A stretch of DNA of 64,000 nt from the IMG/VR virus record IMGVR_UViG_3300008267_000012; one strand, written 5' to 3'. Positions 24,902 through 63,961 of the stretch are shown in pieces. Source of the DNA: a virus (Duplodnaviria; Caudoviricetes). The position numbers were made by a program, and so were the translations under genes. Numbering within the stretch: position 1 is the first letter of the stretch; the number at the start of each line of letters is the position of its first letter. The notes under the pieces are model-generated. The model saw only the letters and a program-made list of their open reading frames with translations, did not search any database and had not been told where the DNA came from.

Positions 24902-27900
24902 TTATTTAAGTTTTCTAAAGCCGTATCTATCAGAGAAGTAATTATAGTTCTTTTTAATTTCAGGGAATGGTAAATCAATATCATACATTCTAAGTCTTTG
25001 TATCTTTCCATAGAATGAACCATCAAAATTCTCTTCAATAACAGATTTAATTCCTCTATTGTATAATATTTCAGTACTGATAGTATAAGAAGTTGTTCCT
25101 GTAAGGTCAACTACATCATATTCACGGAATGAAATATCATCAAAGTAAAAGTTATAGTAAGATGTTATTGCTGTTGAATTTTCAAACTTAATAATAGGTG
25201 TATAAGATGTATATGCATTTATTTCGCTTGGTGTTACAAAATCAATTGATAAATAAGTCCATGTATTTGCAGAACTAATTGTATTATAAGTTGTAGTTGT
25301 TAATACCTCAATTTCAGAATCTAATGGATTAGTAAAATCAAAATAAATACCCTTTTCTTCATTTGGTAAAAATCCATTATCATCATAAAAATAACCACTT
25401 AATATATATCTCTTTTTAGGTTTTATTTCTAAAGGATTTTCAAATATTAATAAATTATTTGTTAATGAAGTAAATGTGGTTGCTGTTGATGATGTAATAG
25501 AATCAGGTATTAAATTATACTCACTAAAAGTATAGTTATCAATAAAGAATTTATAACTTTCTGTTATTGCTGTAATATTACCTACTTTTATAACAGGAGT
25601 ATAAATTGTAAATGATGATAATACTTCAGGTGTTGTAAACTCAACACTTAAATCAACCCAAGCATTTGATAAAACACTATCATTATATGTGATTGATGTT
25701 AAGATAATATTTTCACCTGATAATGTAGGTTCAAAATCAAAATAAATATTCTTTGATTCTCCACTTAAATAACTATTATTATCGTAGAATTTAGTTGAAA
25801 CTGTATATTTTTTAGCAGGATTAATATTTATATCTTCAAATTTAAAGATATTATCCGTTAAGGATGAATATGTTAAGCCTGTAACAATATCTTGTTCATA
25901 TAATTTAAAATCATCAAACTTAAATCCATAAATTGATGGGAAGCAATCACCAAAATCAACATTTACACCTAATGTATAAGAAGTTGCTCCTGTGATTATT
26001 GATGGTGTTTTAATTTCTGTTCTAAGTGTATACCAAGTATTGAAAGAATCTGAATTTGTGTATGCTGTTTTTCCAAGAAGTTCATGTTCTGAATCTAAAT
26101 TCAAGAAATCTATATCAACATACTTGTATGTACTTGTAAAACTAAAGAAATCATTAAATCTTGTTTCAAGAATATATACTTTACTTGGATTTATTGGTTT
26201 TTGGTCAGTAAAAGTAAAGATTGTATTAGATGGTGAATTAAATGTATTACCTGTAAGGTCGGTATTTCTTACATTTAAAATAAATGCAGATGGATTACCA
26301 ACTTCACTAAATGGTAGTGTTTCTAATGTTCCATCAACTAAATCAATTGTAATACCTGATGTAATTCCAACTGTATGTCCACTATCTTCAAATTCACCAA
26401 AATTAGCATCATTTAATGTTAATGTGTTTGATGTATATTGAGTTATAACAAGTGGTGGTAATGCAAGTTTAAGTGAACTATTTCCTGAGAAATATTGCTC
26501 TGTTGATACTTCTAGTATTGAATTTATTGTTTCGCTTGATACATTTTCAGTTGAGGATTCAAATGTTTTACTATAGCCTGTATTATAAACATAACTAAAT
26601 CCTGTTAATGAAAGCACAGGTAATAAATTATATTCTTCAGTATAAATATCATCAAAATAAAACTTATAACTTTGATTTATACCTGATGGATTATCAACAA
26701 ATACATATGGTGTATATGATGTGTTACCTGTTATTTGTGTTGGTGTATTAAATTCAATTTTTAAATCATTCCAAACACCTGAAGTTGTTGATGTTGTGTA
26801 AGTTAAGGATGAAACAAATATATGTTCAGAATCTAATGGTGGTAAGAATCCTATATAAACACCTTTTGTTTCTCCTGTATTGTAACTATTATCATCAAAA
26901 AATTTAGCACTAACAGCATATTTTTTATTAATTTCAGGTGTAAAACTTGATAATGTCAATAATGAATTTGTTATTGAACTAAATGTAAAAGATGTAAATC
27001 CACTTAAAGGATAATTTGTAATTGTAAAATTATCAAAATAAAATTTATAATTTGAACTTATTCCACTCTTATTATATAATTTTGCAACAGGAGTATATGT
27101 TGTAGAGCCTGTTAAAGCACTAGGAGTTATAAACTCCAATGATAAATCAACCCAAGTTTGAGAAGAAGTTGTAGTAGTATATGTTAAAGATGATATAATT
27201 ATATTCTCAGAGTCTAATCCGTTAAGAATTTCTAGTATTACACCCTTTTCTTCATTTGGTAAATAACTATTGTCATCATAAAATTGAGTATTTAGGGAAT
27301 ATTTTGTATCGCTTGTTATTGTAAACGAACTAAAATTAACTAAAATATCTGTTGTTGATGACAATGTAAATGAAGTATAAGTATCAATCGTTTCATATGA
27401 TAAATAATAGTTATCAAAGAAAAAATTATAACCTTGATTATTAATAGTTAAAGATGTAACAGTCTCACCGCTTGTTCCACCTGTAAAAATTAAAGTTGTT
27501 GATGATGGTTCAGCTAATTCATTTTCATAATCAATACTTGTTGAAAATTTATAAATACTATTACCAGTCATTATTGGTGGTGTTTTAAACACATATCTTA
27601 ATTTTGTCCAAGTATTTGCTGATGTTGTAGATGTATATGTTTCAGCGGATAAAATAAGAATTTCAGGGTCTAATGTAGGAATCGTATCTAAATAAATACT
27701 TTTATTTGAACCTGTCCAAGTTTGTGCAATATTTTGTGTATATGCTGAATAATTAATTACATCTCCACTAGCATTTGTTCCTGTATAAGCAGTTACAAAT
27801 ACAGTTTGACCTGTAGCCGTATAGTCATATGTGTAACCTTCATAATAATAATATGCGTTTGGTAATAATGTAATATTATTTACAAAATAAAATAAGTTTT

Positions 27901-30900
27901 TATCAATACTAAAGAATGGAGCATAGCTATCTTGTTGTGGATATGGTGCAACTCTAAGACTTACTGAACCACTTAATACAGGATATACTTCATAAAAATA
28001 TGCTGCCGTATTATTTGTGTTAATTCCATTGGATAAAAATTCAAATGTACCACTATTACCATTTGTAATAACATTACCTGTGTAGACAGTAAGACCTGTA
28101 GTTACTGTGATACCTGAAGCATCACCAAATAATTTCAATGATGTTGAACTTGTAAAATATTGATTTGAAAATTGTTCTGTGCTTGATGTTAAAGTTGCTG
28201 CACTTATTTCTGTTGTAAATCCACTTATACTACCTTCAAAATCATATAATATTGTACCTGCTGAAACATATTCATATATTGTTTTAGTGGATGATGATGA
28301 GGCAGATAAAATTAATGAACTCAATCCTGAAAAAGTTTGAGCAGTTGTTGATGTAATTACGACATCTAAGACATCTGTAGTTACACCGCTAATACTAGTT
28401 TCAAAATCAATTGTATATGAAGAGTTAAAAAAATATGTATAACTTGTTGCATAACCAGTTAAATAGGTTATTGATGTAATTGGGTCAAGAGGTTTTAATT
28501 TTAAAGAATAATTACCTGAATGTGTAAGTGCTGTGCTTGAGTCTATTATAATATCAATAACATCACTTGTAATACCTGTTATATTATTTTCAAAAGTTCC
28601 ATTATCACCATTTAAGAAATAATTTGTATTTCCTGATACATTGTATTGTTCAAATACAAAATCATCAAAAATAAATTTATAATCAATTGAAATACCTGTT
28701 GGATTTACAAATTTAATTACAGGTAAATAACTTGTATTTCCTGTTATTACGGATGGACTTAGAAAGTCTAATTGTAAATCAGTCCAAGTTTGACTTGGTG
28801 TTGTTGTCGTATATGTTAAAGAAGATATAACTATATTTTCAGAATCTAATCCACCTGAGAATGTTAAATAAACACCTTTAGTTTCTCCTGAATTATAACT
28901 ATTGTCATCGTAAAATTTACCTTTGTAAACGTATTTCCTATCAGGAATAATATTTACAGGATTAAATATCAATAAGTTATCACCTGTTGCGCTAAATGTA
29001 AGTCCTGATGTTGAAATAACAGTTTCTAAAATGCTAGGTGAATATTCAATTACTGAGATTTCATCAAAATAAAATTTATAATCATTAACTAAATCAAATA
29101 TAAAACCAACTTCAATAGATGGTAGATAATTTGTAATACCTGTAATTGCTGATGGAGTTGTAAATTCTAATTTTAAATCAACCCATTTTCTTTTTTCAAC
29201 AGTATTGTCATATGTTACTGCTGTTAATACTGTATTTTCAGGGTCTAATCCACCTTGAAAACTTAAAAATACTGATTTGTTATTACCTGTAAAACTATTA
29301 TCATCATAAAACTTAGCAGTATAAATATATCTAGAATTTGGATTAACTGTTATACCTGTTGTACCAAACATTGGTGTTGGTAAAGTATTAATTAATAACA
29401 AATTATTAGTATCCGATGTGTATGATAATGTAGATGCGCTAGAATTACTTAATTTAAGTGTTGTTTCACATTGATATGGATGGTCAGCACTTATTTCAAG
29501 TAATCCATTATAGACTTCAGTAATTACATTTCCAGCTTGATAAATATCATTTATTAAATTTGTACTTGCACTAATGGTTGTTGAACTAACTACTGTGGTT
29601 GGATTTACATTCATTAATAAGACAGAATTATCTTGAGATAAAACCGTACTAAATAAATTATATAAAACATCGGTAGTTGCACCTGTTGTCGCAGCACTAA
29701 GAGTATTTGTATCGCCATATTCTATTTGACTCGTACCACCTGTTATTTGCACATCGTATTCATCAAATGTAAAACTATCAAAATATAATTCATAAAATCT
29801 TGTTCCTGCCGTTAAATCTTCAATTTTTACAGCAGGTGTATATGCCGTTAAACCTGTAATAACTTGTGGAGTTTGAAATTCAAAAATTATATTAGACCAG
29901 GTATTTGGTAAGTCCTCAGTTGTTAAATATGTATGTGATGTGATTACGGTTATTTCTGAATCTAAATTTTCAATAAACCCAAGAGATATTTCATTTATAT
30001 AACAATTAAAGCTATCATGGTCATATAAATTAGCTGCATAAATATATCTTTTATTAGGATTTATTGAAATTGGTTGTGTGAATCTTAATAGATTATCTGT
30101 TATTGAACTAAATGTAGATGCTGTATAGTCATTATAAGTTAATAATAATGAACCACTTCCTGAATAAACTTGAGTTGAACTGCTTAATAATAAACTATTT
30201 ACTAAATCTGTACTTACATTATTAATTGCGGTTTCAAATGTACCAAAATCACCATCATTAAATAAAGTTTGACCTGTTACTAATGTGTAAGAGTAGCCAC
30301 TTAAATTTTCAATACTGTAACCACTTTGATAAATAAAATCTCTACCTGTAATAATATTTTCAGTTACAGTTGCTGATGAGAATGCATCAACATATGAATG
30401 TTTTAATCCCCAAGTACCCCCACCCCAATTTATTGTATATGGAATTCCAATTTGTCTATCAGCATCAATGCTTAATGGTCTTAACCAAAAGAATTCTTCT
30501 GTGTTATCAACTTCATGAAATAATTTACCATTTACATAAATCTTAAAGAATCCATCTCTTCTTGAAACACAATCAATTAAATTATCACCTTCAAAATCTT
30601 TAATTTTTTTACAATATCTAAAGGTGGTAACAATATTTGTCCAACCTGTAGTTAATATTGGATTATCACTTTTATATTCAGTTACAAAGCCTGATGTTAC
30701 TAAATATCTTAATGATATTGTTTTATCATCGTTGAATTTTAAACCTGCTGCATTATATTCAATATCAGGTAAATAACTATTTGTATCATATGTTATTTTT
30801 GATGTATCATCATTTGCCCCTGAAAATGCAATATTGAATTTATTTTCAGATTTAGCACCTAAATATAAAAAGAAACCATCTGTAAATGAATTAATATTAT

Positions 30901-31351
30901 CAAAAGTATCTTGGTCAATATATAACCAAGTATCTATTGTAAACCCATTTTCTGTTCTATATTTTCCAAGTTGAAAATATTTATCATGTAATTTAAAATA
31001 AGTGCTTAAATAACCTCCTGATAATTCAAATGAATTACCTTCATTACCTGAATTTGTTGTTATTTGTGGGAATGTAGTATTTCCCTCACCATCGTTATAT
31101 CCTAATCTTTGAAAGATTAAATTTCTATCTCTTCTTGTAAAAGTTTTTGTTTGTGTTAAAGATGTTGCAAGACCAAAATCGTACATTGTTTGACCATATC
31201 CTGTTAAAGTAAGGTCGGACAAAATATAATTTTCCCAAAATGTTAAACTAGTTACAGAAAATCCTGCATTATTGTCAAACGACTTTATATTTGAAATGTC
31301 AAAATCAAATATAATGTTATCTTTGGTAAGTCCTGTATTATTGAATATCAT
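24902..31351 (-). CDS. Giant virion protein (2149 aa): split LamG domain containing nine nested CBM4/9-like modules
   Basis: LamG N-part (FTIDTWLY, GWTNIVTTF, FKIYVNGKL, INWGGG) and LamG C-part (FYGKIQRLRMY...EIKKNY) flank nine A-halves (GxFE...SGxxSLxL) and nine B-halves (xxKKY...FYDDNS...W..L..EF.TP...F.FDDF). Confidence 0.85.
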   Translation of the reverse strand: MIFNNTGLTKDNIIFDFDISNIKSFDNNAGFSVTSLTFWENYILSDLTLTGYGQTMYDFGLATSLTQTKTFTRRDRNLIFQRLGYNDGEGNTTFPQITTNSGNEGNSFELSGGYLSTYFKLHDKYFQLGKYRTENGFTIDTWLYIDQDTFDNINSFTDGFFLYLGAKSENKFNIAFSGANDDTSKITYDTNSYLPDIEYNAAGLKFNDDKTISLRYLVTSGFVTEYKSDNPILTTGWTNIVTTFRYCKKIKDFEGDNLIDCVSRRDGFFKIYVNGKLFHEVDNTEEFFWLRPLSIDADRQIGIPYTINWGGGTWGLKHSYVDAFSSATVTENIITGRDFIYQSGYSIENLSGYSYTLVTGQTLFNDGDFGTFETAINNVSTDLVNSLLLSSSTQVYSGSGSLLLTYNDYTASTFSSITDNLLRFTQPISINPNKRYIYAANLYDHDSFNCYINEISLGFIENLDSEITVITSHTYLTTEDLPNTWSNIIFEFQTPQVITGLTAYTPAVKIEDLTAGTRFYELYFDSFTFDEYDVQITGGTSQIEYGDTNTLSAATTGATTDVLYNLFSTVLSQDNSVLLMNVNPTTVVSSTTISASTNLINDIYQAGNVITEVYNGLLEISADHPYQCETTLKLSNSSASTLSYTSDTNNLLLINTLPTPMFGTTGITVNPNSRYIYTAKFYDDNSFTGNNKSVFLSFQGGLDPENTVLTAVTYDNTVEKRKWVDLKLEFTTPSAITGITNYLPSIEVGFIFDLVNDYKFYFDEISVIEYSPSILETVISTSGLTFSATGDNLLIFNPVNIIPDRKYVYKGKFYDDNSYNSGETKGVYLTFSGGLDSENIVISSLTYTTTTPSQTWTDLQLDFLSPSVITGNTSYLPVIKFVNPTGISIDYKFIFDDFVFEQYNVSGNTNYFLNGDNGTFENNITGITSDVIDIIIDSSTALTHSGNYSLKLKPLDPITSITYLTGYATSYTYFFNSSYTIDFETSISGVTTDVLDVVITSTTAQTFSGLSSLILSASSSSTKTIYEYVSAGTILYDFEGSISGFTTEISAATLTSSTEQFSNQYFTSSTSLKLFGDASGITVTTGLTVYTGNVITNGNSGTFEFLSNGINTNNTAAYFYEVYPVLSGSVSLRVAPYPQQDSYAPFFSIDKNLFYFVNNITLLPNAYYYYEGYTYDYTATGQTVFVTAYTGTNASGDVINYSAYTQNIAQTWTGSNKSIYLDTIPTLDPEILILSAETYTSTTSANTWTKLRYVFKTPPIMTGNSIYKFSTSIDYENELAEPSSTTLIFTGGTSGETVTSLTINNQGYNFFFDNYYLSYETIDTYTSFTLSSTTDILVNFSSFTITSDTKYSLNTQFYDDNSYLPNEEKGVILEILNGLDSENIIISSLTYTTTTSSQTWVDLSLEFITPSALTGSTTYTPVAKLYNKSGISSNYKFYFDNFTITNYPLSGFTSFTFSSITNSLLTLSSFTPEINKKYAVSAKFFDDNSYNTGETKGVYIGFLPPLDSEHIFVSSLTYTTSTTSGVWNDLKIEFNTPTQITGNTSYTPYVFVDNPSGINQSYKFYFDDIYTEEYNLLPVLSLTGFSYVYNTGYSKTFESSTENVSSETINSILEVSTEQYFSGNSSLKLALPPLVITQYTSNTLTLNDANFGEFEDSGHTVGITSGITIDLVDGTLETLPFSEVGNPSAFILNVRNTDLTGNTFNSPSNTIFTFTDQKPINPSKVYILETRFNDFFSFTSTYKYVDIDFLNLDSEHELLGKTAYTNSDSFNTWYTLRTEIKTPSIITGATSYTLGVNVDFGDCFPSIYGFKFDDFKLYEQDIVTGLTYSSLTDNIFKFEDININPAKKYTVSTKFYDNNSYLSGESKNIYFDFEPTLSGENIILTSITYNDSVLSNAWVDLSVEFTTPEVLSSFTIYTPVIKVGNITAITESYKFFIDNYTFSEYNLIPDSITSSTATTFTSLTNNLLIFENPLEIKPKKRYILSGYFYDDNGFLPNEEKGIYFDFTNPLDSEIEVLTTTTYNTISSANTWTYLSIDFVTPSEINAYTSYTPIIKFENSTAITSYYNFYFDDISFREYDVVDLTGTTSYTISTEILYNRGIKSVIEENFDGSFYGKIQRLRMYDIDLPFPEIKKNYNYFSDRYGFRKLK

Positions 31352-31404: not shown

Positions 31405-33975
31405 TTAATTTTGTAATTCTATAAAAGAATTTCCATTCTCATCTTTATCAACCATAATAAGGTAATCAGGATTGATTATATCGCCATATGCATGTTCAAT
31501 AATTAAAATTTTATCAATATCTTGTTTAACTTTATTCATAAGATTTATAAAGTTAATTGCGTTTCTTTCAGAGAGTTTTCCAAATAGTTCATCAAGAAGA
31601 AGAATATTTGGTCTTGACCTATTATTCATAAATCTTAATGCAAGTCTAAGACAAATACAAGCAAATACTCTTTCCATTCCTGAACCTGAAATAACATTTT
31701 GAATAATTTCAGGAGTGTCTTTCTTTGACATTTGAAAAAAGAGTTCACTATCAAAGAAAACATTAAAGTCAATATCTTCTGTATATCCTTGAAGATACAT
31801 ATTTACTTTTGGAATTAATTTCTTTAATAATGTACTTGGAATGCCTTCTCTGTGAATGCAGTTTTGATATTCTTCTCTGATTAATTCTTGTCTTTGCTGT
31901 TCTAAATACTTTGTAATTGTATCTTTATAGTTTTTAATTTCATTTTCAGCAAATTCAATCTTATATTTAAAATCATTTACTTCTTTTTTCAATGATTCTT
32001 TATCATTTTTAAATTCATTGACTTTTGATTTATATGTATCAATTTTTGATTGAATTTTATTATTCTCTTGAATATAAACTATATTAATATCATATCTTTT
32101 TAGAATATCATTTTTTTGAAAGATTTTTAAGTCAATATTTTCAATATGCATTGGAATATTATCATATTCCTGTTTGAATTTATTTCTTTTTTCAATCTCT
32201 TTAATAATTAATTCAATCTTTGTAATCTTTTCTTTTACCTTAGTGATTGCTACACTTTCTTTTTTAATCTCATCCTCAAAACCTTTTATTAATGACCTTT
32301 TACTTTCAGTCATTAATTCTTTATCTTTAATTTCTTCTTTATATTTATCAATATTTTTATTGATTGCTTTTAAATCTAGTTCATATTTCTTTTTATATGA
32401 CTCTTTTTTAATCTCACCTTTGAATTTTTCAATATTAGATTTTAGTTTATCAACTTTTACTTTGATTGATTCAATTGCATCCTCATCTTTTAAACGATTA
32501 CAACTAGGACAAACTTTACTATCTTCTAATGAGGAAATTTCCCTTTCAATTAAATCAATTTGTCTTTCTAAACCAAGTCTATCATTATCAATTTGAGAAT
32601 CAACTTTTGTTATTGCAAGATTTTCTTTATGGATATATCCATTTATTACTGCAATATCATTTGTAATGGTATTAATTTCTTTATTTAAGTCTTTTATTTG
32701 GTCATTCTTAGAAATTAACCAACCATTGAATGAATTTGATTTTTCCTTTAATGAATTATAAAGTTCTTCATCTAAAACAAACTTATTAAGTTCCTCAATT
32801 TGTTTTAAAAGGTCTTTTTGTGACCTTTTCTTTTCTTCTTTATCATTAATAAGTTTATTAATCTCATCTTTAATTTGATTAATATTTAGATTCGTTAATT
32901 TGGAATCAATTGGTTTTAATGTCTTAATTGTATTCTCAACATGAAGTTCACCATTTGAAATCCTTTCATTTAGAGTATTAATTTTATCTTCCCTATCTTC
33001 TATTTGAGTTTTATAATCCTCAATATAAACTTTTGCATCATCAATAAGTTGATTATACCTATCAACAGATATATTTAAAAGACTTTCTTTTTTATATTCA
33101 TTTTTCTTATAGGCTTTGAATACTTCAAGTTTCTTTTCAAATATATCAAGACCAGTATCTCTAAGAATTGAATCTAAGAATTTAGCATGGTCGGTTGTAA
33201 GAATATCATTTAAAGTATCAGCATTAATTAAGGATTTTGTGATAAATTCATCAAAATCCCCAATTGAATGTTCAATTAACTTTTGAGTATTAGTTTTATC
33301 CTGTTCTGAAAGATTATTTTCATCAATTATCTCACCATTTGAGTCTAATTTATTGAAATAGGTCTTTGTTGAGCATGAGGTAATCTCTGTATGTGTTTTA
33401 TCCCATTTTCTTTCAGTTCTTCTTCTAATGGCATAATCTTCACCATTGATTTCAACGATTAACTGAACTTCTGAATAATCTTTTTTGTTATTGTTGTTGA
33501 TAAATTTATTATCTCTGTTCTTCTCTTTTTTGAGAGTATCAAAGGTAGTACCATAAAGACCATATGTAATAGAGTTTAAAATGTTTGAGTTATGAACTGC
33601 AATGTTATTGGCATAATATTCACCAATACCTTCAACTTGAATATCTACTAAGTCAATAGTGGTTTGTGGGCATGTTGAAATTCTAAAAATATTTTCAATT
33701 CCATCTTTAGTTTTGACTTTAATGAAAGACCATTCATTTTTAATTTCATCAAATGATTTAAAAAGACCTAAATCTGTTCTAATAAGATGGTCTTTTGAAA
33801 CGGATAATCTTTTTCCTTTTTCCGTTTCTAATGTCCAATATTGGGAATCTTTTGAAGTGACATCATAGGCAAGAATTTTTGAATACCCACATGGGGTTTC
33901 AACCTCAATGTTTAATTCAAGAAGTAAGTCTTTTAATATTCTAAGATTTTCAATCTTTATCTGTTTCTCTGTCAT
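31405..33975 (-). CDS. sbcC: C-terminal half of fractured Rad50/SbcC (gp46-like) ATPase, fused behind IntC of a split intein
   Basis: After ...YYANNIAVHN the sequence resumes S-NILNSITYGLYG. It has Q-loop region, Zn-hook CPSC, coiled coil, signature SGSGME, Walker B ILLLDE and H-loop IIEH. ATG at 33975; the track's 33999 start is TTG. Confidence 0.93.
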   Translation of the reverse strand: MTEKQIKIENLRILKDLLLELNIEVETPCGYSKILAYDVTSKDSQYWTLETEKGKRLSVSKDHLIRTDLGLFKSFDEIKNEWSFIKVKTKDGIENIFRISTCPQTTIDLVDIQVEGIGEYYANNIAVHNSNILNSITYGLYGTTFDTLKKEKNRDNKFINNNNKKDYSEVQLIVEINGEDYAIRRRTERKWDKTHTEITSCSTKTYFNKLDSNGEIIDENNLSEQDKTNTQKLIEHSIGDFDEFITKSLINADTLNDILTTDHAKFLDSILRDTGLDIFEKKLEVFKAYKKNEYKKESLLNISVDRYNQLIDDAKVYIEDYKTQIEDREDKINTLNERISNGELHVENTIKTLKPIDSKLTNLNINQIKDEINKLINDKEEKKRSQKDLLKQIEELNKFVLDEELYNSLKEKSNSFNGWLISKNDQIKDLNKEINTITNDIAVINGYIHKENLAITKVDSQIDNDRLGLERQIDLIEREISSLEDSKVCPSCNRLKDEDAIESIKVKVDKLKSNIEKFKGEIKKESYKKKYELDLKAINKNIDKYKEEIKDKELMTESKRSLIKGFEDEIKKESVAITKVKEKITKIELIIKEIEKRNKFKQEYDNIPMHIENIDLKIFQKNDILKRYDINIVYIQENNKIQSKIDTYKSKVNEFKNDKESLKKEVNDFKYKIEFAENEIKNYKDTITKYLEQQRQELIREEYQNCIHREGIPSTLLKKLIPKVNMYLQGYTEDIDFNVFFDSELFFQMSKKDTPEIIQNVISGSGMERVFACICLRLALRFMNNRSRPNILLLDELFGKLSERNAINFINLMNKVKQDIDKILIIEHAYGDIINPDYLIMVDKDENGNSFIELQN
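33589..33975 (-). mobile_element. IntC fragment (~129 aa) of an atypically split mini-intein
   Basis: IKIENL, VETPCG, block B VSKDH, KTKDG, block F LVDIQV, block G YYANNIAVHN followed by Ser+1 (33586-33588). No endonuclease domain. Confidence 0.92.
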
Positions 33976-34525
33976 TTTCAAGTAATGGAAAAATTTCAAT
34001 AATATTATTTACCCTATTGTTATGATTCTCATACTTCTTTTCAGGGTCAAATAAAATAATTTTTGTATTATCAAAAGATAATTCTGATAGTTTAGGATTT
34101 GCAGTTAGTATATAATCAAAATCATCATCAATGTAGTCTACAAATCTATTGTAGAATCTAATTTCATCAAAATAAAATCCTGCTGAAAAGTTTGATATAT
34201 AGAAAGCAGTTAAGTTTCTAAATTTATGTCCTTCTCTTGATATCATTACTATCTTATACCCATTTTCGGATAGTTCAGGATAAATTTGATTTAACTGTGC
34301 AATCAATTCTTTTGATGGTAATGTTGATTTAGCAAACAATTCATAGGAATATTGATACAAGAATTCTTCTAACTCATTACCTTCAAAATTAAATGAAAGT
34401 AATGGATTGAATGGGTCAATTGGATAACCTACTGACCTATCAGCAAACTCAATTTGATAGTATTGTTGAAATTTTTTGATAAAATCCCTTAAAATTCCGT
34501 TTACTTCTATTGCAAAAGTTTTCAT
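33950..34525 (-). CDS. HAD-superfamily 5'-nucleotidase-like protein with degenerate catalytic motif
   Basis: FAIEVNGILRDF in place of the canonical DxDGVLxDF; IVMISRE (motif II); YILTANP. Its 3' end overlaps the IntC-sbcC start by 26 nt. Confidence 0.6.
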   Translation of the reverse strand: MKTFAIEVNGILRDFIKKFQQYYQIEFADRSVGYPIDPFNPLLSFNFEGNELEEFLYQYSYELFAKSTLPSKELIAQLNQIYPELSENGYKIVMISREGHKFRNLTAFYISNFSAGFYFDEIRFYNRFVDYIDDDFDYILTANPKLSELSFDNTKIILFDPEKKYENHNNRVNNIIEIFPLLENDRETDKD

Positions 34526-38905: not shown

Positions 38906-40243
38906 TTATTTTAAAAATTCAGGTAAATATCCAAGTTTATTTATTATTTCTTCTTCGTTAAATCTAATATTGATTTTTGTTTCGGGATGAACGCATTTAC
39001 CAACCTGATTTTCTCCGTAGATTTGAATAATTCCATTCTTATCTGTTAAATCAAGTTCATATCTTTCACCATGCGATTTAAAGTTATCAAGTACAATCTT
39101 TTTAACTTTCCAATCATAGAATTGATTCTCCACATCTTTTTCAATCAATGATGTTATTTCATTATCAAGTGATAAAACATCCTTTATAAAGTCTTCTTGA
39201 TGGTTTTTAGCTTTCAAAAAGTTTATAAACTCCTGTCTTACACTATCATCATTGTTTAAATCAATTGTTTCATCAAATTCTTTAATCTTTAAAGATTTAT
39301 TTAGAATCTTAGATTTATCAAATTTAATAGTGGCGAATTCGCCATATTTAGATTCTAAATGTTTCTTAATCTTTTGTTTATTTTCAACATTAAATGTTGA
39401 ATATTGGTCCATCCAATGAATCTTAATATGATTATGTTTTCCAACATTTTTAAGTTCAATATCTAGATTTTGATAATCATAATCTTCATTGATATAGATA
39501 TTAAAGTATTTATAATCTGAGATTATTTCTTTCTTTTCAAAAGTTTTTGCTTCAATATCCCATAAAAGATAACCATGAAAAGCATTATCACCTTCACCGT
39601 AATTGGTACAATATAATGACGATGGGTAAGCAAAAAACTCTCTTCCATTTTTTTGATATGATTGTTGGAGATGTATATCTCCTGCCATTACAATATCACC
39701 TTTAAAATCAGCAAGAGAAACAATATTACTATCGGTATGGTATTGTCCATTTTGTAGATAACATCCATTAATTGGGTCATGGAAAAGGTCAATATAATAC
39801 TTATTATTATTGCGCTTTTCTTCATTGAATTCAAGCCAAGGGGATTTTCTATCAGGGTGATACCAAACAGCGAAAACAATATTATCAAGTTCAAAAAAAC
39901 CTGTTGAATCATAGTAGTGTATATTAGGATTGTTAATAATCTCAACAAGCATCTTGATTGATGACATTCTGTTGAGATTTGATTTCATTATATCGTGATT
40001 ACCATCAATAATAACCACAGGTGCTATCATAGCACAAGAAGTCAAAAAATCTCCTGCAAGGACATTGATTTCATTAAAAGGTTTTACATAGTTGTGGAAT
40101 AGGTCACCTACAATTACAATCAAATCAGGTCTGTCCTTGATTAGGGATTTAATTGTAAGACTTGAGATATGTTTTTGCTCTGCTAATCTGTCCAAATTAT
40201 TTTGGAAGTGGATATCAGCAAGATGAGCTATTTTCTGAATCAT
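38906..40243 (-). CDS. sbcD: Mre11/SbcD (gp47-like) nuclease fused to the first ~40 aa of Rad50/SbcC and the IntN fragment
   Basis: Phosphoesterase motifs ADIH, VGDLFH, DGNHD, FHDP, AGDIH, YPSS; then WKVKKIVLDNFKSHG...IYGENQVGK (Rad50 beta1 plus Walker A up to Lys), then CVHPETKINIRF...stop. Confidence 0.93.
   Translation of the reverse strand: MIQKIAHLADIHFQNNLDRLAEQKHISSLTIKSLIKDRPDLIVIVGDLFHNYVKPFNEINVLAGDFLTSCAMIAPVVIIDGNHDIMKSNLNRMSSIKMLVEIINNPNIHYYDSTGFFELDNIVFAVWYHPDRKSPWLEFNEEKRNNNKYYIDLFHDPINGCYLQNGQYHTDSNIVSLADFKGDIVMAGDIHLQQSYQKNGREFFAYPSSLYCTNYGEGDNAFHGYLLWDIEAKTFEKKEIISDYKYFNIYINEDYDYQNLDIELKNVGKHNHIKIHWMDQYSTFNVENKQKIKKHLESKYGEFATIKFDKSKILNKSLKIKEFDETIDLNNDDSVRQEFINFLKAKNHQEDFIKDVLSLDNEITSLIEKDVENQFYDWKVKKIVLDNFKSHGERYELDLTDKNGIIQIYGENQVGKCVHPETKINIRFNEEEIINKLGYLPEFLK
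38909..38995 (-). mobile_element. IntN fragment (29 aa, Cys1) of an atypically split intein
   Basis: CVHPETKINIRFNEEEIINKLGYLPEFLK starts immediately after Walker A GK; block A pattern C-V-x-x-x-T-x-I. Confidence 0.88.
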
Positions 40244-55853: not shown

Positions 55854-57839
55854 TTAGTTAGTTATCCTGAACTTCACATAGTTAGAGTTTGGATATTGAA
55901 ATCCATTCTTATCCAATCCCCTAACTTCAATTGTATAATCATGTGAAATAAACCAAGAAAAGTCAACTTCGGCAAAATATTCATCATTAACTTTTGATGC
56001 TTTAGTAAATGGAATCACATCAATTTGATTCTTGCCTTGATTAACAAAAATTCTAAATTCAATATCACCAATAATATTTTTTAAAATCTTTGTCTGAATT
56101 AATCTTTTTGCTTTAAAAATTATTCTTTTTAAACCTGCTTTTTTAGTTATTATATCATTTTGTTTAATACCAACAACATTAATAAATACTTCTGTTGAAT
56201 AAATTAATGAATCATCATTTAAATCTGGTCTTGAAATATTAAATTCTCTTTCTATAACTTTGTTTTTACCATTTTGTGTATAATACCATTTGGTATAGAA
56301 TATTTCTTGGTCCTGATAGTTATCTGAATCAATATAAAATGGTGTTCTATAATTAGAATAATTTAATCTTGTAAATGCAGTTGTTGCTGTTGTTGAATAT
56401 ATAATCTCATCATTTGAATCAATTATTTCAAATTTATTAATAGATGTTACAGGTGCTTGTGAAATAAAATAAAAATTGCTAGTTTCATCAAATTTCAAAC
56501 AACAATTTTCATCAATAACCCTATCATCATATAAAGTTTCTAAATATGGTTCAAAGAATGTTTGTGTATATTTTGAAAAGAATGTAACAACATTTTTAGT
56601 TTCTGCTGTTAATGATTCAGTATTTGCTGAATACGCAATACAAATACCATTATTTGGTTGTCCTGAAAATAATATTCCATTTACATAATCAGTAATATCA
56701 ACTTCAATATCTTCATTACCAATTTCAAATCTTTGTGTTGTTAATATTGATAGATTTGTTGCTCTTGCATCATATGTATATGATGTTTCAACCTTTGTTG
56801 AAAAATCAAAATTATCAAAAAAGAAATTATAATTATCTGTAACTCCGCTAGTTCCATCAATTTTAACAGATACTGTATATGATGTATTACCTGTAAATCC
56901 AGTTGGAACTGTAAATTTATATTCTAAATCATTCCAAACACCTGCATTAAATGCTGAAGTATATTCAATTGTTGAATTTAATGTAATTTCAGGGTCTAAA
57001 GTAGGTGATACATCAAGATAAATTCTTTTATAGTCGCAAGTATAACTGCTTAAATCAAGAACTTTACCTGTAATATAATAAGATGTAATTGATGTAAGAT
57101 TCCCTGATATTGTTATAGGTGTATTAAGTGTAAAAAGAGTATTTGTTGGAGAATAAAATGAATAATTTAATGGGTCTACATTTGATAAATGTAAAGAATT
57201 AAGTCCACTATAAAAATATAATGTAGAAGATGTTAAAATGCTGTTTGTGGTATCACTTGTAATACCTGTTATATTTAATTCAAATGTTCCAAAATCACCA
57301 TCAATGATTTGATTTGGTGTATTTCCTGTTGTTATACCTGTTAATGTAATAATATCATCAATATAATCCGTATCATGTAAAAATACACCTGGTTGTACCC
57401 AACTTATTTGTGGATTTTTTCTATTAAACCAATTTGCTGCTGATTTATTAAGTTCTACTTCTCTGAATAATCTATCATTATAAACATAGTCATAACCTGT
57501 TCCTTCATCAAAAGATTCTTCAAGTTTAATAAATGCTAAATCAAATCCACTTGCTCTTTTTGCTGTTAAAAAATCAACACCAATATATCCATCATTCAAT
57601 GCAATGCAGTTTTTTATTTTTAAAACATGTGATTGTATTGTATTTTGATTTAATATATTAGTTGTTAGTTTTTCTTTTAATTTATCTAAGTCAATATTAA
57701 AAACATAGCGACTAACTTCTGTAGTAGCTGTATTAAAACTATTACCATAGGATAGTTCAATAATAGGATTTCTTGAATTGTTAGTATAAGAATTCCTTAT
57801 TAAAGTTGCTTGGTTTTTTAAATATGACCTGAATATCAT
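55854..57839 (-). CDS. Putative virion structural protein carrying one inserted CBM-like module
   Basis: Contains DGDFGTFE...SGLNSLHL...YYITGKVLD...WNDLEYKFTVP...FTGNTSY...FFDNFDF, homologous to the repeats of 24902-31351. Confidence 0.7.
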   Translation of the reverse strand: MIFRSYLKNQATLIRNSYTNNSRNPIIELSYGNSFNTATTEVSRYVFNIDLDKLKEKLTTNILNQNTIQSHVLKIKNCIALNDGYIGVDFLTAKRASGFDLAFIKLEESFDEGTGYDYVYNDRLFREVELNKSAANWFNRKNPQISWVQPGVFLHDTDYIDDIITLTGITTGNTPNQIIDGDFGTFELNITGITSDTTNSILTSSTLYFYSGLNSLHLSNVDPLNYSFYSPTNTLFTLNTPITISGNLTSITSYYITGKVLDLSSYTCDYKRIYLDVSPTLDPEITLNSTIEYTSAFNAGVWNDLEYKFTVPTGFTGNTSYTVSVKIDGTSGVTDNYNFFFDNFDFSTKVETSYTYDARATNLSILTTQRFEIGNEDIEVDITDYVNGILFSGQPNNGICIAYSANTESLTAETKNVVTFFSKYTQTFFEPYLETLYDDRVIDENCCLKFDETSNFYFISQAPVTSINKFEIIDSNDEIIYSTTATTAFTRLNYSNYRTPFYIDSDNYQDQEIFYTKWYYTQNGKNKVIEREFNISRPDLNDDSLIYSTEVFINVVGIKQNDIITKKAGLKRIIFKAKRLIQTKILKNIIGDIEFRIFVNQGKNQIDVIPFTKASKVNDEYFAEVDFSWFISHDYTIEVRGLDKNGFQYPNSNYVKFRITN

Positions 57840-59425: not shown

Positions 59426-62400
59426 TTAAGTTGTTAAAACATTTTGACCATTCCAAGTATCTTTCAAACTAAATAAAAAGTTTACATAATCAATATAATC
59501 ATCTAATGTCATTAATTCAATATGTAAATGTATTCCTGAACTAGTTGGACCAACAGTATCTTGTATTGCTAGTCTTTGTCCTTTTTTAAAGGTATCTCCT
59601 GTTTTTATAAATGCACCACTCCAATGTAAAAATACACATGTTTTAGTACCTGTTGTATCAATTAAACACATAACTGGATTACCATCATTACCTTTTGGGT
59701 CAACAAGAACTGCTTTCCCATCAAATGGTGCAGGAAATGGTACTTTAGCTGAATTTTTACTCTTTAATGTTAAATCAATAACCATGTGGTCATAGTTTTC
59801 ATTTCTTGTTTTTATGACCGAATAGTTACTTTCGTTTGAATAGTTTCCAAGATAACCTGATGCTCTATATGCAACTTTATATATCAAATCACCTGCCGAA
59901 ACAATCTTGTGTTTCTTTAATAATGTAGGACTGTGGTGATGTTTTAGCTCGTAGTAAGATTTTTTACCACATGAAGTAGAATCACAAATACTATCAAATT
60001 TCCTACTTGCTGGTAAACCTTGCCTAACTTTTGTTACATCTTCTCCATCAACTTCTTTTACATCAATCTCAGATTGAATTCTTCTATATGCATTATTTTT
60101 AATAAAATCAATAAGTTCTTGGTCAACAATAGGATTAACATCTTTTTTAAGTCTATATCCTTTAAATGTAGTTTCAAGTCTTTGAGTATCAGAGTCTATT
60201 GAATGTGAAACATTGTAAATAATATATAATCCTTCAAATATTGGAATAAATTTTTCATAATAATATTGAGTTGGTTGAATACCCATATTGCCATATGGTA
60301 TTTTAATAGTTGAAGAATAACTTTGTTTTTGATAAACATTCAATAATGATTGACCCTTTGGTATTGCAAAAGAATTGTTTGCTTGATTAATAATATCTGA
60401 TTGAATTCTTAAACCTTCATCAGTATTTTTTAATGATTCTGTTGAATGTTGAAAGTTTGAAAATACCATTTGGTTTTGTAAACCTGTATATTTAACTAAA
60501 AATGCATTTAATCCTGTACCAAAATCAGGAGGAATATTATCTTCTTTAATACTATCGTCAGTTATGTCATAACCTCTTACTGTTGATGGATTGCTTGACA
60601 AACCACCAACATACATACCAATAAATAATGGTTTTGTTACTGTTGATACATCATAATTTATATCAAATAATTTATTATAATTTTCTGATGTTGTTAAAAA
60701 TCCTTGAAATGGATAAAACCAAAAATTATTATCCGATAGTAATCTTGAAATTGCACTAAGAATACTAACATTTGAATCATTAATATCATTGAGCATTGTT
60801 TTCATATCCAAAACACATCTTTTTGAGATATCATTATATGCTCTATCAACAAATTTAAAGTCATCTCTTAATGTAAGTTGATGTTGACCACTTTGCCTTT
60901 TATGTAAATAACTTTCGTAAATTACTTGAAATGTTTTATATGTTGATAGTTTAATATCATTGTCTTTAAGACTTGATTCAAATGCACTAAATTTATCATC
61001 AACTTTTTTATCATTTATTTTAACATTTTCATTGATTTTTTTAACCAAAAGTTTTAAATAATGTAAATAAACATAATCAGGAATTGTGTTTAAAGCAAAT
61101 CCTGTATTGGTAAGTGATGTACTAAGATTTAGATTTTTTGGTGATGCTCTAAAATCATTAATACTAACATACATTGGTTTATAAAATTCATCTAAAACCA
61201 AATTATAATCAATTGAATTAGCAAAAGCAGGGTCTATTGTTATTTCATATGTATCTGTTTGTCCAGGTATTTTACTAATTTTATAATGAAAGTTATTACT
61301 AAATTCTTGCCACATATTTAGTATTTGCTTTTCAAAGGTTGAATTTTTGATTATGTTTAAACCTTTTATTATTTTTGCTTCATATCCTGAAGGATACAAT
61401 GTAACAGAAGCTAATGCACCAAGAATAATTAATCCACCTTTTGGAATTTGATTTAAACTTAAATATTTAGCACCATTAATTAATTTTGTAAAGTAAAATG
61501 TAGCATCTACTGGTGTACCTCCTGGACTATTTTGATTTCCAGGTATATTATATGAATCAACATATAATTTTTGTATTTTATTAGTTTTTTGAAATGTTTT
61601 CTTTACGGAATTTTCAAGGTCATAATCATAATCACTTTCTTTATTATTTTCCTCTAATTTATCATCTTTTGTAAATAAAACATTATCTACAGTAAATGTG
61701 CAATTATTTTTACTTGATAAATCTTTTATATATTTTGTTATTATATCCTCTGAACTACTATCTGTAATAGGTGTTGGTGGAACATTTGTTATTGTAATAT
61801 AATCTGCGTCTGCTTTTCTAATATCTAAAACAGAATCTGTAATTGGGGTTTTTTGTGTTGATATTTCAGAATTTACATATTGTGTAAAATAATAATTTGC
61901 ATCTGTAGGATTTTCTGAACTACCATTAAGTTGTGTTTCTAAAGTTTTAAACCATGTTTTTAAATTATCTTCAGTTGCAATTGAATGTGCAATATTTCTT
62001 GCTTCAAACTGAATATAACTTAAAAATATATTTTTAGCAATTTCTTCAGTAAAAACATTATCTTTACTAGTAAAAAATCCTATTATTGATTTAAAAAATG
62101 ATGTATCATCGGAATTTCCAAAATCCCATTTTGATGCTTTAGCAGGATAAGTGGTATTTGAAAAATCAATTAAAGGTATTGTTATATTACCTAATAATAT
62201 GAATCTTTGATAAATTAACCTTGCTAAATTATTTGTATTTGTATTATTAAAATAAATATTGTCAATTGTTACCGCTTCATTTTTAGTATATATTTCTCTT
62301 GGATTATATGGTATATATTTTGAAGACCCATTCTCATTTTTTTCGTTTACAATTTCTGAAATATAATTATTTCTAATTGCCCAAAAAAAGGCATCAATAA

Positions 62401-63961
62401 ACTGATTTACAAATCTTACTTCGGGCCATTGTTTAAACGCATCAAGTTCACCTGGAAAAACAATAGTTTGTGCGCCTGTTACGGCATCCGTTTTAACAAC
62501 TGTTGGAAATGGTATGCTATCTCTTATATTGTTTTTATTTCTAGTTGTATCAATTTTTGCTTCTTCTGCTATTGCATAAACTTTATCAAGTAGTTTATTA
62601 TAATCATTTAATATAATATCAAACACACTACCAACAGTAAGTCTTGTTGAACCTAAGTATTTAGTTATTAAATTTTTTAACCTATTCTCTAGATTAGAAG
62701 CATATCTTTCTGAACTAGTAATTATATCAAGTTCTAATTTTTGTCTTTCTTTTTCAGCAAGAGAGAAATCTATTTTGGTTCTTATGTCTGTTTGAAAACC
62801 ATTAACATTAAAAAAATTACCATCAGGAATTAGTAAATTACGAGTTATTGGAGGTTGACTTTTTAATGCTATATTAATTGTATTAACATTTGTTGTAATA
62901 ATTCTGTTAATTAAGGCAATATCAGTACTTTCTAAATTCCCTAATGCGTTTATGGGTGTTGCTACTGGTCCACTAAATTGAGGAACAAAATAAACAACAT
63001 CACTTTTTTGGTTTGTTGCATCAATATAATTAACTTGTATTCTGTCTTTTACAGGTTGCGCTAATGCTTTAAAATCAGCATCATCATCAAACCAAGTCTG
63101 TATTGTTTCTTTTGTTTTTGTTCTAAATAAACTTACAGTATTTATTAAACTTTGTAATGTATCTCTCTTCTTTTCTAATTCAGTAATATTTTCTTTTTCT
63201 TGTTCTGATTGTATTTGTGAATCTACTTTTGTAAATAATTTTTTGATATTTATCATTAGTTCATGAAAACTTTGAATATCAGTATCGTTTACATTTACTT
63301 TTTTATTCTCTAAATATGGAACAGCCATTAAATATAATAATGGTACATCTGCTAATGCAGAAAATTTATTACCAACAAATTTACTTGTTATAATAAAGTT
63401 ACCATTATCATCAATTGAAATATCATCCCTTGTTTTTAATAATTCATAAGTAACTTTTGGGCCAAACCCACCTTTTAATGTCAATTCAAAAATTGGATAA
63501 GGTAATTGAAACATTTGGGCAAACTTACTGTCAAAGTTGGAAAGAACATTACCCCTTAAATCATAAAAAACTATAGTAACTACAGGTATTTTGTTTGCAT
63601 CATAAACAACTTCAATACTTTTAATTCCAAATCCTTCATAATCTTTATTCTTACCATTATTACCCATTAACTCATCTGTGTATCTTGTAGAAAAATACTC
63701 ATCAACAGATTCATCAGCATTTTTTCTAGTATGATATCCATATAGTCTTATTGTACCAACACTAGAACTTCTTTTAAAGTTTACTACATTATTTTCATCT
63801 ACTTCATAATAACCTTCAACTTTAGGTCTCATTTTGAGTTCAACAAAAGACCTTATTTCTTCAAAATCAGGAATCCTAATATTATTATCAGCGTTTCCTC
63901 TTACAAACCAACTTTGTTTCTTTAGTATTTCCTCATTAGGGTCTATTAAATTGATACTCAT
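59426..63961 (-). CDS. Baseplate hub-like protein (1511 aa) with C-terminal M23/LytM peptidase domain
   Basis: N-terminal FGIKSIEV...VTIVFYDLRG and late GNMGIQP...GLYIIYNVSHSI...TTFKGYR are hub-like; C-terminal HMVID (HxxxD), APFDGK, FLHW, GDTFKKGQRL, GIHLHIE (HxH). Confidence 0.75.
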   Translation of the reverse strand: MSINLIDPNEEILKKQSWFVRGNADNNIRIPDFEEIRSFVELKMRPKVEGYYEVDENNVVNFKRSSSVGTIRLYGYHTRKNADESVDEYFSTRYTDELMGNNGKNKDYEGFGIKSIEVVYDANKIPVVTIVFYDLRGNVLSNFDSKFAQMFQLPYPIFELTLKGGFGPKVTYELLKTRDDISIDDNGNFIITSKFVGNKFSALADVPLLYLMAVPYLENKKVNVNDTDIQSFHELMINIKKLFTKVDSQIQSEQEKENITELEKKRDTLQSLINTVSLFRTKTKETIQTWFDDDADFKALAQPVKDRIQVNYIDATNQKSDVVYFVPQFSGPVATPINALGNLESTDIALINRIITTNVNTINIALKSQPPITRNLLIPDGNFFNVNGFQTDIRTKIDFSLAEKERQKLELDIITSSERYASNLENRLKNLITKYLGSTRLTVGSVFDIILNDYNKLLDKVYAIAEEAKIDTTRNKNNIRDSIPFPTVVKTDAVTGAQTIVFPGELDAFKQWPEVRFVNQFIDAFFWAIRNNYISEIVNEKNENGSSKYIPYNPREIYTKNEAVTIDNIYFNNTNTNNLARLIYQRFILLGNITIPLIDFSNTTYPAKASKWDFGNSDDTSFFKSIIGFFTSKDNVFTEEIAKNIFLSYIQFEARNIAHSIATEDNLKTWFKTLETQLNGSSENPTDANYYFTQYVNSEISTQKTPITDSVLDIRKADADYITITNVPPTPITDSSSEDIITKYIKDLSSKNNCTFTVDNVLFTKDDKLEENNKESDYDYDLENSVKKTFQKTNKIQKLYVDSYNIPGNQNSPGGTPVDATFYFTKLINGAKYLSLNQIPKGGLIILGALASVTLYPSGYEAKIIKGLNIIKNSTFEKQILNMWQEFSNNFHYKISKIPGQTDTYEITIDPAFANSIDYNLVLDEFYKPMYVSINDFRASPKNLNLSTSLTNTGFALNTIPDYVYLHYLKLLVKKINENVKINDKKVDDKFSAFESSLKDNDIKLSTYKTFQVIYESYLHKRQSGQHQLTLRDDFKFVDRAYNDISKRCVLDMKTMLNDINDSNVSILSAISRLLSDNNFWFYPFQGFLTTSENYNKLFDINYDVSTVTKPLFIGMYVGGLSSNPSTVRGYDITDDSIKEDNIPPDFGTGLNAFLVKYTGLQNQMVFSNFQHSTESLKNTDEGLRIQSDIINQANNSFAIPKGQSLLNVYQKQSYSSTIKIPYGNMGIQPTQYYYEKFIPIFEGLYIIYNVSHSIDSDTQRLETTFKGYRLKKDVNPIVDQELIDFIKNNAYRRIQSEIDVKEVDGEDVTKVRQGLPASRKFDSICDSTSCGKKSYYELKHHHSPTLLKKHKIVSAGDLIYKVAYRASGYLGNYSNESNYSVIKTRNENYDHMVIDLTLKSKNSAKVPFPAPFDGKAVLVDPKGNDGNPVMCLIDTTGTKTCVFLHWSGAFIKTGDTFKKGQRLAIQDTVGPTSSGIHLHIELMTLDDYIDYVNFLFSLKDTWNGQNVLTT

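Follow-up and report, generated by a model that had tools for sequence, protein, structure and literature searches.

A phage protein that is probably a single-chain, branched tree of nested jelly-roll domains

Introduction

How does a polypeptide fold when the two halves of its repeating unit are dealt out along the chain in runs, several first halves in succession and then several second halves? The question is raised by a long open reading frame (ORF) in a stretch of 64,000 nucleotides (hereafter 'the window') from a virus of the Caudoviricetes, IMG/VR record IMGVR_UViG_3300008267_000012. The ORF (24902..31351, minus strand) is complete, and encodes a protein of 2149 amino acids followed by a stop codon, which we refer to as P0001. 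An initial inspection of the letters and translations, here called the sequence-only reading, had proposed that P0001 holds nine 'A-halves' and nine 'B-halves' of a domain resembling a carbohydrate-binding module (CBM), in an order that is balanced when A is written as an opening bracket and B as a closing one; each β-sandwich would be completed by distant segments of the chain, with new units budding from the loop between the A- and B-halves of their parent. Neither Pfam-A (hmmscan, E <= 1) nor the PHROGs collection recognises P0001, and a tblastn search of 50,697 deposited phage genomes returned no match to it. We report here a computational analysis, from which we conclude that P0001 is probably a nested, single-chain tree of jelly-roll domains.

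Two kinds of half-repeat in a balanced order

The A-half is about 45 residues long and the B-half about 125. Searching P0001 alone with phmmer and a contiguous unit from the same protein (residues 360-545) gave 14 full or partial copies, some of the partial ones spanning seed positions 1 to 45-60 and others 46-180. A profile hidden Markov model (HMM) of the B-half alone found nine copies, from residues 405, 637, 778, 1142-1320, 1322, 1451, 1696, 1823 and 1952, and the corresponding A-half profile found seven clear ones, from residues 363, 911, 975, 1038, 1097, 1588 and 1646. The 100 residues separating the first two B-halves are accounted for by two degenerate A-halves, each aligning to the pooled A profile with P ~2e-4 in hhalign. 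These two, A2 and A3, had been the least certain calls of the sequence-only reading and prove to be real, since HMMs iterated over the family also detect both in 12/12 orthologues, at 20-33 bits. No further A- or B-half was found in P0001 at a domain E <= 0.01, other than weak partial B-like matches confined to the 'frame' that surrounds the array (described below).

The order of halves is A B A A B B A A A A B B B A A B B B, or ()(())(((()))(())) in bracket notation. The separate profiles thus reproduce the order originally proposed, with boundaries agreeing to within ~25 nt, and the count, for which any inequality had been named as evidence against nesting, came out equal at 9:9. A random arrangement of nine A- and nine B-halves is balanced with a probability of 4862/48620 = 0.1, so the order seen in this single protein is suggestive rather than decisive.

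An A-half and a B-half together form one CBM-like domain

To what does a unit correspond structurally? We modelled residues 1585-1950 of P0001, which contain A8, A9, B7 and B8, with AlphaFold2 and a 21-row alignment. Model residues 47-239, comprising the directly adjoining A9 and B7, superpose on whole CBM22, CBM16 and CBM4 chains with Z scores of 9-10 and root-mean-square deviations (rmsd) of 3.0-3.8 Å, over 130-145 residues that make up nearly all of the 145-165-residue target chains (for 4xun_A, 4xuo_A, 1h6y_A, 2zex_A and 2y64_A, Z scores of 8.7-10.1 over 133-147 residues); the A-half regions of this model carry low values of the predicted local distance difference test (pLDDT). As the superposition takes in entire CBM modules, the A-half would supply the N-terminal strands of the jelly roll. 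Units in an AlphaFold model of a smaller relative, P0013, likewise superpose on CBM4/CBM22-type folds over the whole module.

Nature also provides the unit in its undivided form. An exhaustive profile search with the contiguous unit over 1.84 billion representative proteins recovered 12 proteins and no more, and five of these (P0017 and P0019-22) have one contiguous unit each, matching positions 3-174 of the 177 in the profile. Searching PDB sequences by profile with the single-unit proteins gave chance-level matches only (E ~0.3). On the strength of the structural models, a contiguous A+B is shown to be one domain of CBM4/CBM22 type, with the A-half as its N-terminal strands and the B-half as the remainder.

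Whole units come and go at the A|B junction

Twelve full-length orthologues, of 2145-2164 residues and 69-87% identity, all possess the nine-unit balanced order (12/12). Mapping complete proteins of the wider family with the HMMs revealed six array patterns: () in P0019-22 and P0035-38; (()) in P0018 and P0055; (()()) in P0015, P0029, P0031-33, P0053 and P0054; ((())) in P0030; ((())()) in P0013, P0014 and P0026-28; and the nine-unit pattern in P0001-12. Together with relatives that have a frame but no units, these form a natural series of 0, 1, 2, 3, 4 or 9 units. Each of the six patterns is balanced, with as many A-halves as B-halves, and it is this recurrence of equal counts and balanced strings that is decisive where the order in P0001 by itself is not.

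The most informative comparison is that between P0035, with one contiguous unit, and P0013, with four. Residues 1-414 of P0035 are 80.5% identical to residues 1-415 of P0013, and residues 422-606 of the former are 89.7% identical to residues 1006-1190 of the latter. When the family is aligned, the first A-half (A1, residues 365-410) and the last B-half (B4, residues 997-1120) of P0013, which lie 590 residues apart, share 89-96% identity with the one contiguous unit of P0035-37; across such comparisons, halves that are split in one relative match a contiguous domain of another at 84-96% identity. Set beside P0015, too, the proteins P0035-37 have the outer unit in undivided form. The smaller steps tell the same story: proteins of the P0015 type lack exactly A3+B1 of P0013 (residues 475-676), with breakpoints where A2 ends (...SGTNSLRL) and B2 begins (TYSSLTNNLL), and P0030 lacks exactly A4+B3, the sibling branch. 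Indels between close relatives comprise one or more whole A+B units, and in no case is one half lost without the other.

Where one protein has a domain in undivided form and another has it, at 84-96% identity, as two separated pieces, the fold is almost certainly the same in both, which in turn requires the intervening units to loop out from the A|B junction. The full-length AlphaFold2 model of P0013 provides partial support for this, in that it closes the outermost pair, A1 and B4, into a single jelly roll across the 590 residues between them. Among the top 50 structural matches to the model, 16 run from residues 354-359 to residues 1119-1123, aligning 133-165 residues at an rmsd of 3.0-3.9 Å and Z scores of 8.4-9.7 with single-domain CBM16, CBM4-2 and CBM-like cyclase targets; B4 of P0013 is just 125 residues long, so A1 must contribute to matches of this size. 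The gain or loss of whole bracket pairs, which the sequence-only reading had suggested looking for among orthologues, is therefore what the sequence comparisons of relatives show, with the A|B junction as the site. Its structural proposal, that distant segments complete each sandwich and that units bud from the A/B loop of the parent, is supported in these relatives by the indels and the P0013 model, and extends to the split pairs of P0001 by inference.

Several proteins looked at first sight like unbalanced members of the family, and were rejected as such. In the case of P0016, which reads BBB, the gene begins at base 5 of a contig of 1.4 kb; P0034 and P0040 stop short and have no C-terminal frame tail, and are presumed to be truncated; and P0039 belongs to a full-length gene that contains a frameshift. 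This last gene (L004:8001-14437 in IMG/VR, 70-77% identical to P0001) is a complete nine-unit gene whose reading frame shifts from 3 to 2 after residue 500, through either a sequencing error or decay to a pseudogene, with the 500-residue P0039 as its first part. The P0016 locus (L002:5-1348) is unusual in its own right: units of P0001 type, similar to B5 and B6, are joined, inside a B-half, to the C-terminal portion of a unit of P0017 type, after which comes an FN3-like region, and the whole is either a natural recombinant of two unit-bearing genes or an assembly chimera.

The array of P0001 and the putative partners of its split halves

Read in the same way, the string of P0001 would parse into three top-level units (all coordinates that follow are on the minus strand). 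In the first (unit 1), the opening half A1 (30140..30265; residues 363-404; A-HMM 63 bits) runs directly into B1 (29747..30139; residues 405-535; B-HMM 173 bits), which closes it. The second begins with the degenerate A2 (29600..29725; residues 543-584; hhalign P = 2e-4; iterated HMM 26 bits), for which we infer B3 as the partner (28634..29020; residues 778-906; B-HMM 184 bits), and would carry a single inner unit, unit 3, made up of the equally degenerate A3 (29444..29569; residues 595-636; hhalign P = 2e-4; iterated HMM 27 bits) and the B2 that directly follows and closes it (29033..29443; residues 637-773; B-HMM 163 bits). Here phmmer aligns residues 607-774 of P0001 with seed positions 18-177.

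The third top-level unit would be opened by A4 (28484..28621; residues 911-956; A-HMM 74 bits) and closed by its putative partner B9 (25109..25498; residues 1952-2081; B-HMM 179 bits), some 1000 residues downstream, with two branches in between. In the deeper branch, A5 (28301..28429; residues 975-1017; A-HMM 30 bits, 47 when iterated) would pair with B6 (26624..27001; residues 1451-1576; B-HMM 174 bits), and inside it A6 (28127..28246; residues 1036-1075; A-HMM 10 bits, 30 when iterated; hhalign E = 5e-7) with B5 (27005..27388; residues 1322-1449; B-HMM 169 bits). At the centre sits the innermost unit, at depth 4, formed by A7 (27932..28072; residues 1094-1140; A-HMM 64 bits) and the contiguous B4 (27392..27928; residues 1142-1320), a B-half enlarged by loop insertions of ~55 residues and matched by the B-HMM in three collinear pieces (HMM positions 1-76, 35-105 and 79-120). 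The other branch would consist of A8 (26447..26590; residues 1588-1635; A-HMM 74 bits) with B8 (25511..25882; residues 1824-1947; B-HMM 172 bits), enclosing A9 (26270..26419; residues 1645-1694; A-HMM 57 bits) and the contiguous B7 (25883..26266; residues 1696-1823; B-HMM 154 bits). The five split units would accordingly be A2.B3, A4.B9, A5.B6, A6.B5 and A8.B8.

Two further lines of evidence bear on these assignments. Across the 12 orthologues, the conservation of each A-half tracks that of its nested partner (Spearman 0.63), placing the nested assignment 7th of 120, with A6/B5 and A5/B6 as the most conserved pairs; a coupling that favours nesting, and is suggestive only. A prediction with ESMFold2 of A4 and B9 as two separate chains gave ipSAE scores of 0.49, 0.45 and 0.51, set against 0.01 for the best control, with an interface in which almost the whole of A4 meets the first and last strands of B9, and lends weak support to the pairing of these two halves.

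A frame domain around the array

A point absent from the sequence-only reading is that the array is itself an insertion. Members of the family share an N-terminal region of ~340 residues and a C-terminal tail of ~65 residues, which together constitute the frame, with the variable array between them. In P0001 the N-part occupies 30317..31351 (minus strand; residues 1-345), and is kept across all array patterns, and the C-part occupies 24905..25105 (minus strand; residues 2083-2149; motif NFDGSFYGKIQRLRMYD...EIKKNYNYF), following the last B-half in all of them; the consensus of the tail reads ...NFDGSF.G.IQ.LR.Y...EIKKNYNYF. Frame-only relatives are found in L008 (413 residues), L009, L025, P0041 and P0042, in which the tail comes 15-25 residues after the N-part: residues 16-343 of L008 match residues 14-320 of P0001, and its residues 362-398 match residues 2104-2140. 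L008, L009 and L025 show this continuity of the frame in comparison with P0035 as well as with P0001. Because the two parts of the frame are contiguous in these proteins, the nine-unit array is, by sequence comparison, an insertion of ~1780 residues into a frame domain.

The frame domain is widespread, and its relatives are a frequent feature of jumbo-phage contigs: a scan of IMG/VR with the frame N-part yielded 465 of them confirmed by tblastn, many on contigs of 200-370 kb. Those examined are mostly of 570-850 residues, and a few are frame-only proteins of 413-450 residues; the B-HMM matches many, often weakly, and the A-HMM few. This is consistent with most of the 570-850-residue relatives having one divergent unit.

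As to the fold of the frame, we suggest that it is probably a jelly roll of the LamG/ConA type, a view that is based on matches of its relatives to PF13385. These fall below threshold and, of the 151 positions in the profile, cover 16-89: the match of P0037 reaches 24.9 bits (E = 2.5e-5), where 27.6 would be needed, P0036 has an E-value of 8e-4 and P0038 one of 1.7e-3; for P0037, a precomputed match to PF13385 is also listed. Viral clusters in the ESM Atlas that look like the single-unit P0035 (feature scores 0.96-0.97) have members with PF13385 and PF02018. For the frame region, pLDDT values in the P0013 model are mostly below 50, without a usable structural match.

Weighing the nested reading against its rivals

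A number of observations weigh against a nested P0001, or limit how far the evidence for it can be taken. The relatives that illuminate P0013 have no counterpart in the clade of P0001, as word-index searches, the exhaustive profile search and the IMG/VR scan gave no relative of this clade with an intermediate number of units; hence the five split pairs of P0001 are all without an orthologue in which the two halves adjoin. The statistics are equivocal, since within P0001 a mirror-tree (Mantel) comparison of A-A with B-B similarity gave r = 0.24-0.39 for the nested assignment, with p = 0.11-0.22, and a test of partner consistency between proteins, using 12 reference units of known pairing, gave r = 0.07 and a nested rank of 31/120. 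The structural models have their own shortcomings. B7 and B8 are modelled confidently without A8 in the model of residues 1585-1950; the P0013 model is of low overall quality (pLDDT 54; predicted template modelling score, pTM, 0.31), does not resolve the second split pair, A2.B2, and was built on an alignment that included contiguous orthologues, such that the model and the indels do not count as independent evidence; and the A4+B9 scores lie in what the tool itself treats as its weak band, and are not pair-specific inasmuch as any A-half may fit any B-half. At the level of annotation, no CBM family in Pfam matches either P0001 (E <= 1) or the single-unit relatives (E <= 0.1), and a Pfam-A hmmscan of P0001 gave no match to PF13385, which also counts against the LamG label for the frame.

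What else, then, could the alternation of halves signify? The plainest alternative is a string of beads, in which B-halves are autonomous β-sandwiches, A-halves are small modules or structured linkers, and their equal numbers are the product of block duplication. AlphaFold does place the B-halves of P0013, along with B7 and B8, at pLDDT 65-89 and leaves most A-halves unplaced (A8 at pLDDT 26-36, beside ~80 for B7 and ~85 for B8), and A-halves are less conserved than B-halves, to the point of degeneracy in A2 and A3. Against this, the solved CBM22, CBM4 and CBM16 structures align over A+B and not over B alone; in single-unit relatives the A-half always directly precedes the B-half; no indel removes an A or a B by itself; the split outer halves of P0013 have an undivided domain as their orthologue and are joined in the model; and A4 docks extensively onto B9 in the two-chain prediction. 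We consequently hold the beads arrangement to be improbable. Complementation between chains, by which the A-half of one subunit completes the B-half of another through three-dimensional domain swapping in an oligomer such as a trimeric fibre, deserves consideration because many phage fibres are intertwined oligomers, and because the A4+B9 prediction demonstrates only that halves can complement one another in trans. Domain swapping needs no balanced order, yet every intact member of the family is balanced; the P0013 model pairs A1 with B4 inside one chain; and no coiled-coil or β-helix region for trimerisation was seen in the Pfam scan of P0001 or in the AlphaFold models. This, too, seems to us quite improbable.

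It is also conceivable that the halves pair within the chain in some other manner, sequentially or with crossing, for instance A5 with B4 and A7 with B6, and the tests of co-similarity do not prefer nested over other assignments. For such schemes to be correct, however, they would have to accommodate the direct contiguity of A7-B4, A9-B7 and A3-B2, which resemble single units; the gain and loss of complete units at the A|B junction, which is the only mechanism documented in relatives and yields nested orders only; a Mantel r of -0.24 to -0.36 for sequential pairing, as against +0.24 to +0.39 for nested; and the 7th place of 120 that conservation coupling gives to the nested assignment. Non-nested pairing is, in our view, very improbable indeed. 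The nested single-chain tree thus remains the reading that we prefer, and we consider it probable.

A speculative model for growth and function

Synthesising these findings, we propose a model in which the frame (residues 1 to ~345 together with residues 2083-2149) is interrupted near its C-terminal strands by nine CBM4/CBM22-like units. Complete new units would have been inserted, repeatedly, into the A/B loop of an existing unit, each insertion leaving the parental A- and B-halves far apart in sequence and yet folding together. The outcome would be a tree, antler-like as the sequence-only reading had envisaged, with three limbs, A1.B1, A2.B3 (carrying A3.B2) and A4.B9, the last bearing the branches A5.B6 > A6.B5 > A7.B4 and A8.B8 > A9.B7; with the frame included, this gives five levels of nesting. 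Both valency and the specificity of the tips would then evolve through the addition, loss and swapping of whole units.

We suggest that P0001 is probably a multivalent, glycan-binding appendage of the virion, with a predicted role in host adhesion or receptor binding. Such a role would fit the CBM-like fold, the absence of an enzymatic domain, the rapid change of unit number between close relatives and the hypervariability of the innermost unit. As regards the last of these, A7 (window 27932..28072) occurs in three allelic forms among the 12 orthologues, one of which has an insertion of 9-12 residues, and its mean identity is 44%, compared with 64-85% for every other segment; on these alignments it looks like a hot spot of recombination or diversification, located at the tip of the deepest branch.

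A bolder proposition is that the A|B loop serves as a dedicated growth point, where a recurrent, site-specific process at the level of DNA inserts unit cassettes at the same codon-level junction; candidates would include recombination or template switching between copies of the unit, either within a genome or between co-infecting phages. We regard this as doubtful. Were it true, jumbo phages could enlarge, cut back and re-tip their branched receptor-binding tree within short spans of evolutionary time, diversifying valency and/or host range by self-similar insertion instead of by tandem repeats or mutagenic retrohoming.

Relation to known systems

Of multidomain proteins, about 20% contain an inserted domain. 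Instances of recursive nesting are rare, the published showcase being Si3 of cyanobacterial RNA polymerase. Located in the β' subunit, Si3 has a crystal structure with eight copies of the sandwich-barrel hybrid motif (SBHM), among which SBHM-2 to SBHM-5 are assembled from distant regions (PMC10895346), and analysis with ECOD and AlphaFold describes six levels of nesting with bifurcating nodes (PMC13114784). As proposed for P0001, a small β domain type has been recursively inserted into copies of itself, and several domains draw on distant segments of the chain. The differences are those of fold (an SBHM there, a CBM4/22-like jelly roll here) and of setting, as Si3 lies in the trigger loop of an essential enzyme and the P0001 family consists of phage proteins. 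The P0001 family in addition offers graded relatives with 0, 1, 2, 3, 4 and 9 units, flanks that are 80-96% identical and single-step indels, and all of its insertions use one fixed loop. Si3 is the closest known analogue, its principle recurring here with another fold and on the side of a virus. Nesting that is at once deep, branched and homotypic has, to our knowledge, so far been documented essentially for that one system, and the P0001 family would be a second and independent case, with a different fold and from a virus.

CBMs of the CBM22, CBM4 and CBM16 families are known to occur in tandem or appended to enzymes, and a limited literature search found no report of CBMs nested in one another. 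These families (the Pfam CBM_4_9 clan) share the fold of A+B, with Z scores of 9-11 and rmsd values of 3.0-3.8 Å over 130-153 residues (4xup_E being included amongst the targets); they differ in that there is no Pfam match at E <= 1, and in a structural-alignment identity of only 8-16%. Nearer to phage biology, the CBM insertions of Dit and Tal are single-level and heterotypic, and lie in well-defined baseplate proteins. The evolved Dit and Tal of siphophages infecting lactic acid bacteria are adhesion proteins in which a CBM has been inserted in a loop of another β domain (PMC7533335, PMC9692632, PMC8540738). The insertion in P0001 would differ in that it is homotypic, forms branches and reaches a depth of four. 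Lastly, phage proteins of the Uroviricota with Laminin_G_3 plus CBM_4_9, gathered in ESM Atlas clusters, resemble P0035, a likeness detected by language model and not by alignment; they range from 394 to 1235 residues, and nothing about them indicates nesting.

With relatives a single step apart, and flanks that reach 96% identity, one can read directly both the course of evolution and the loop that permits insertion. For protein engineering, the family draws attention to a jelly-roll loop able to accommodate inserts of 200 to > 1000 residues; for phage biology, it suggests a route to multivalent, rigidly branched single-chain adhesins with their most variable unit at the deepest tip; and for annotation, it implies that repeat halves found out of order do not necessarily signify a scrambled or degenerate gene.

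Genome context and neighbouring genes

The window, which is AT-rich (~27% GC), resembles a portion of the genome of a large, uncultured phage. On PHROG and Pfam matches it encodes SbcC-like, metallophosphoesterase, AAA, DnaB/gp41-like helicase, UvsX-like and exonuclease proteins, the helicase being <= 25% identical to that of any deposited phage, and synteny is preserved in the contig that carries P0013. The large ORFs adjacent to the P0001 gene (1384 and 1479 residues) are without annotation, and an Atlas search with the 1384-residue protein gave no usable match.

The same phage has a second gene with a unit of this kind, 55854..57839 (minus strand), whose 661-residue product is close to P0017 and has one contiguous A+B unit (A, residues 180-218; B, residues 226-347) in a different surrounding protein that is without the frame. 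Further along, 59426..63961 (minus strand) encodes a protein of 1511 residues with a C-terminal M23 peptidase domain, at a Pfam E-value of 6.7e-6 that falls just below the cut-off, and a match to phrog_7767, a metallo-endopeptidase; judging from these matches, the product may be a virion-associated cell-wall hydrolase. Directly upstream of the P0001 gene, the SbcC/Rad50-like ORF (31405..33999, minus strand) matches only the C-terminal two thirds of its PHROG model, and the ORF of the Metallophos (SbcD-like) protein (38906..40243, minus strand) lies 5 kb from it.

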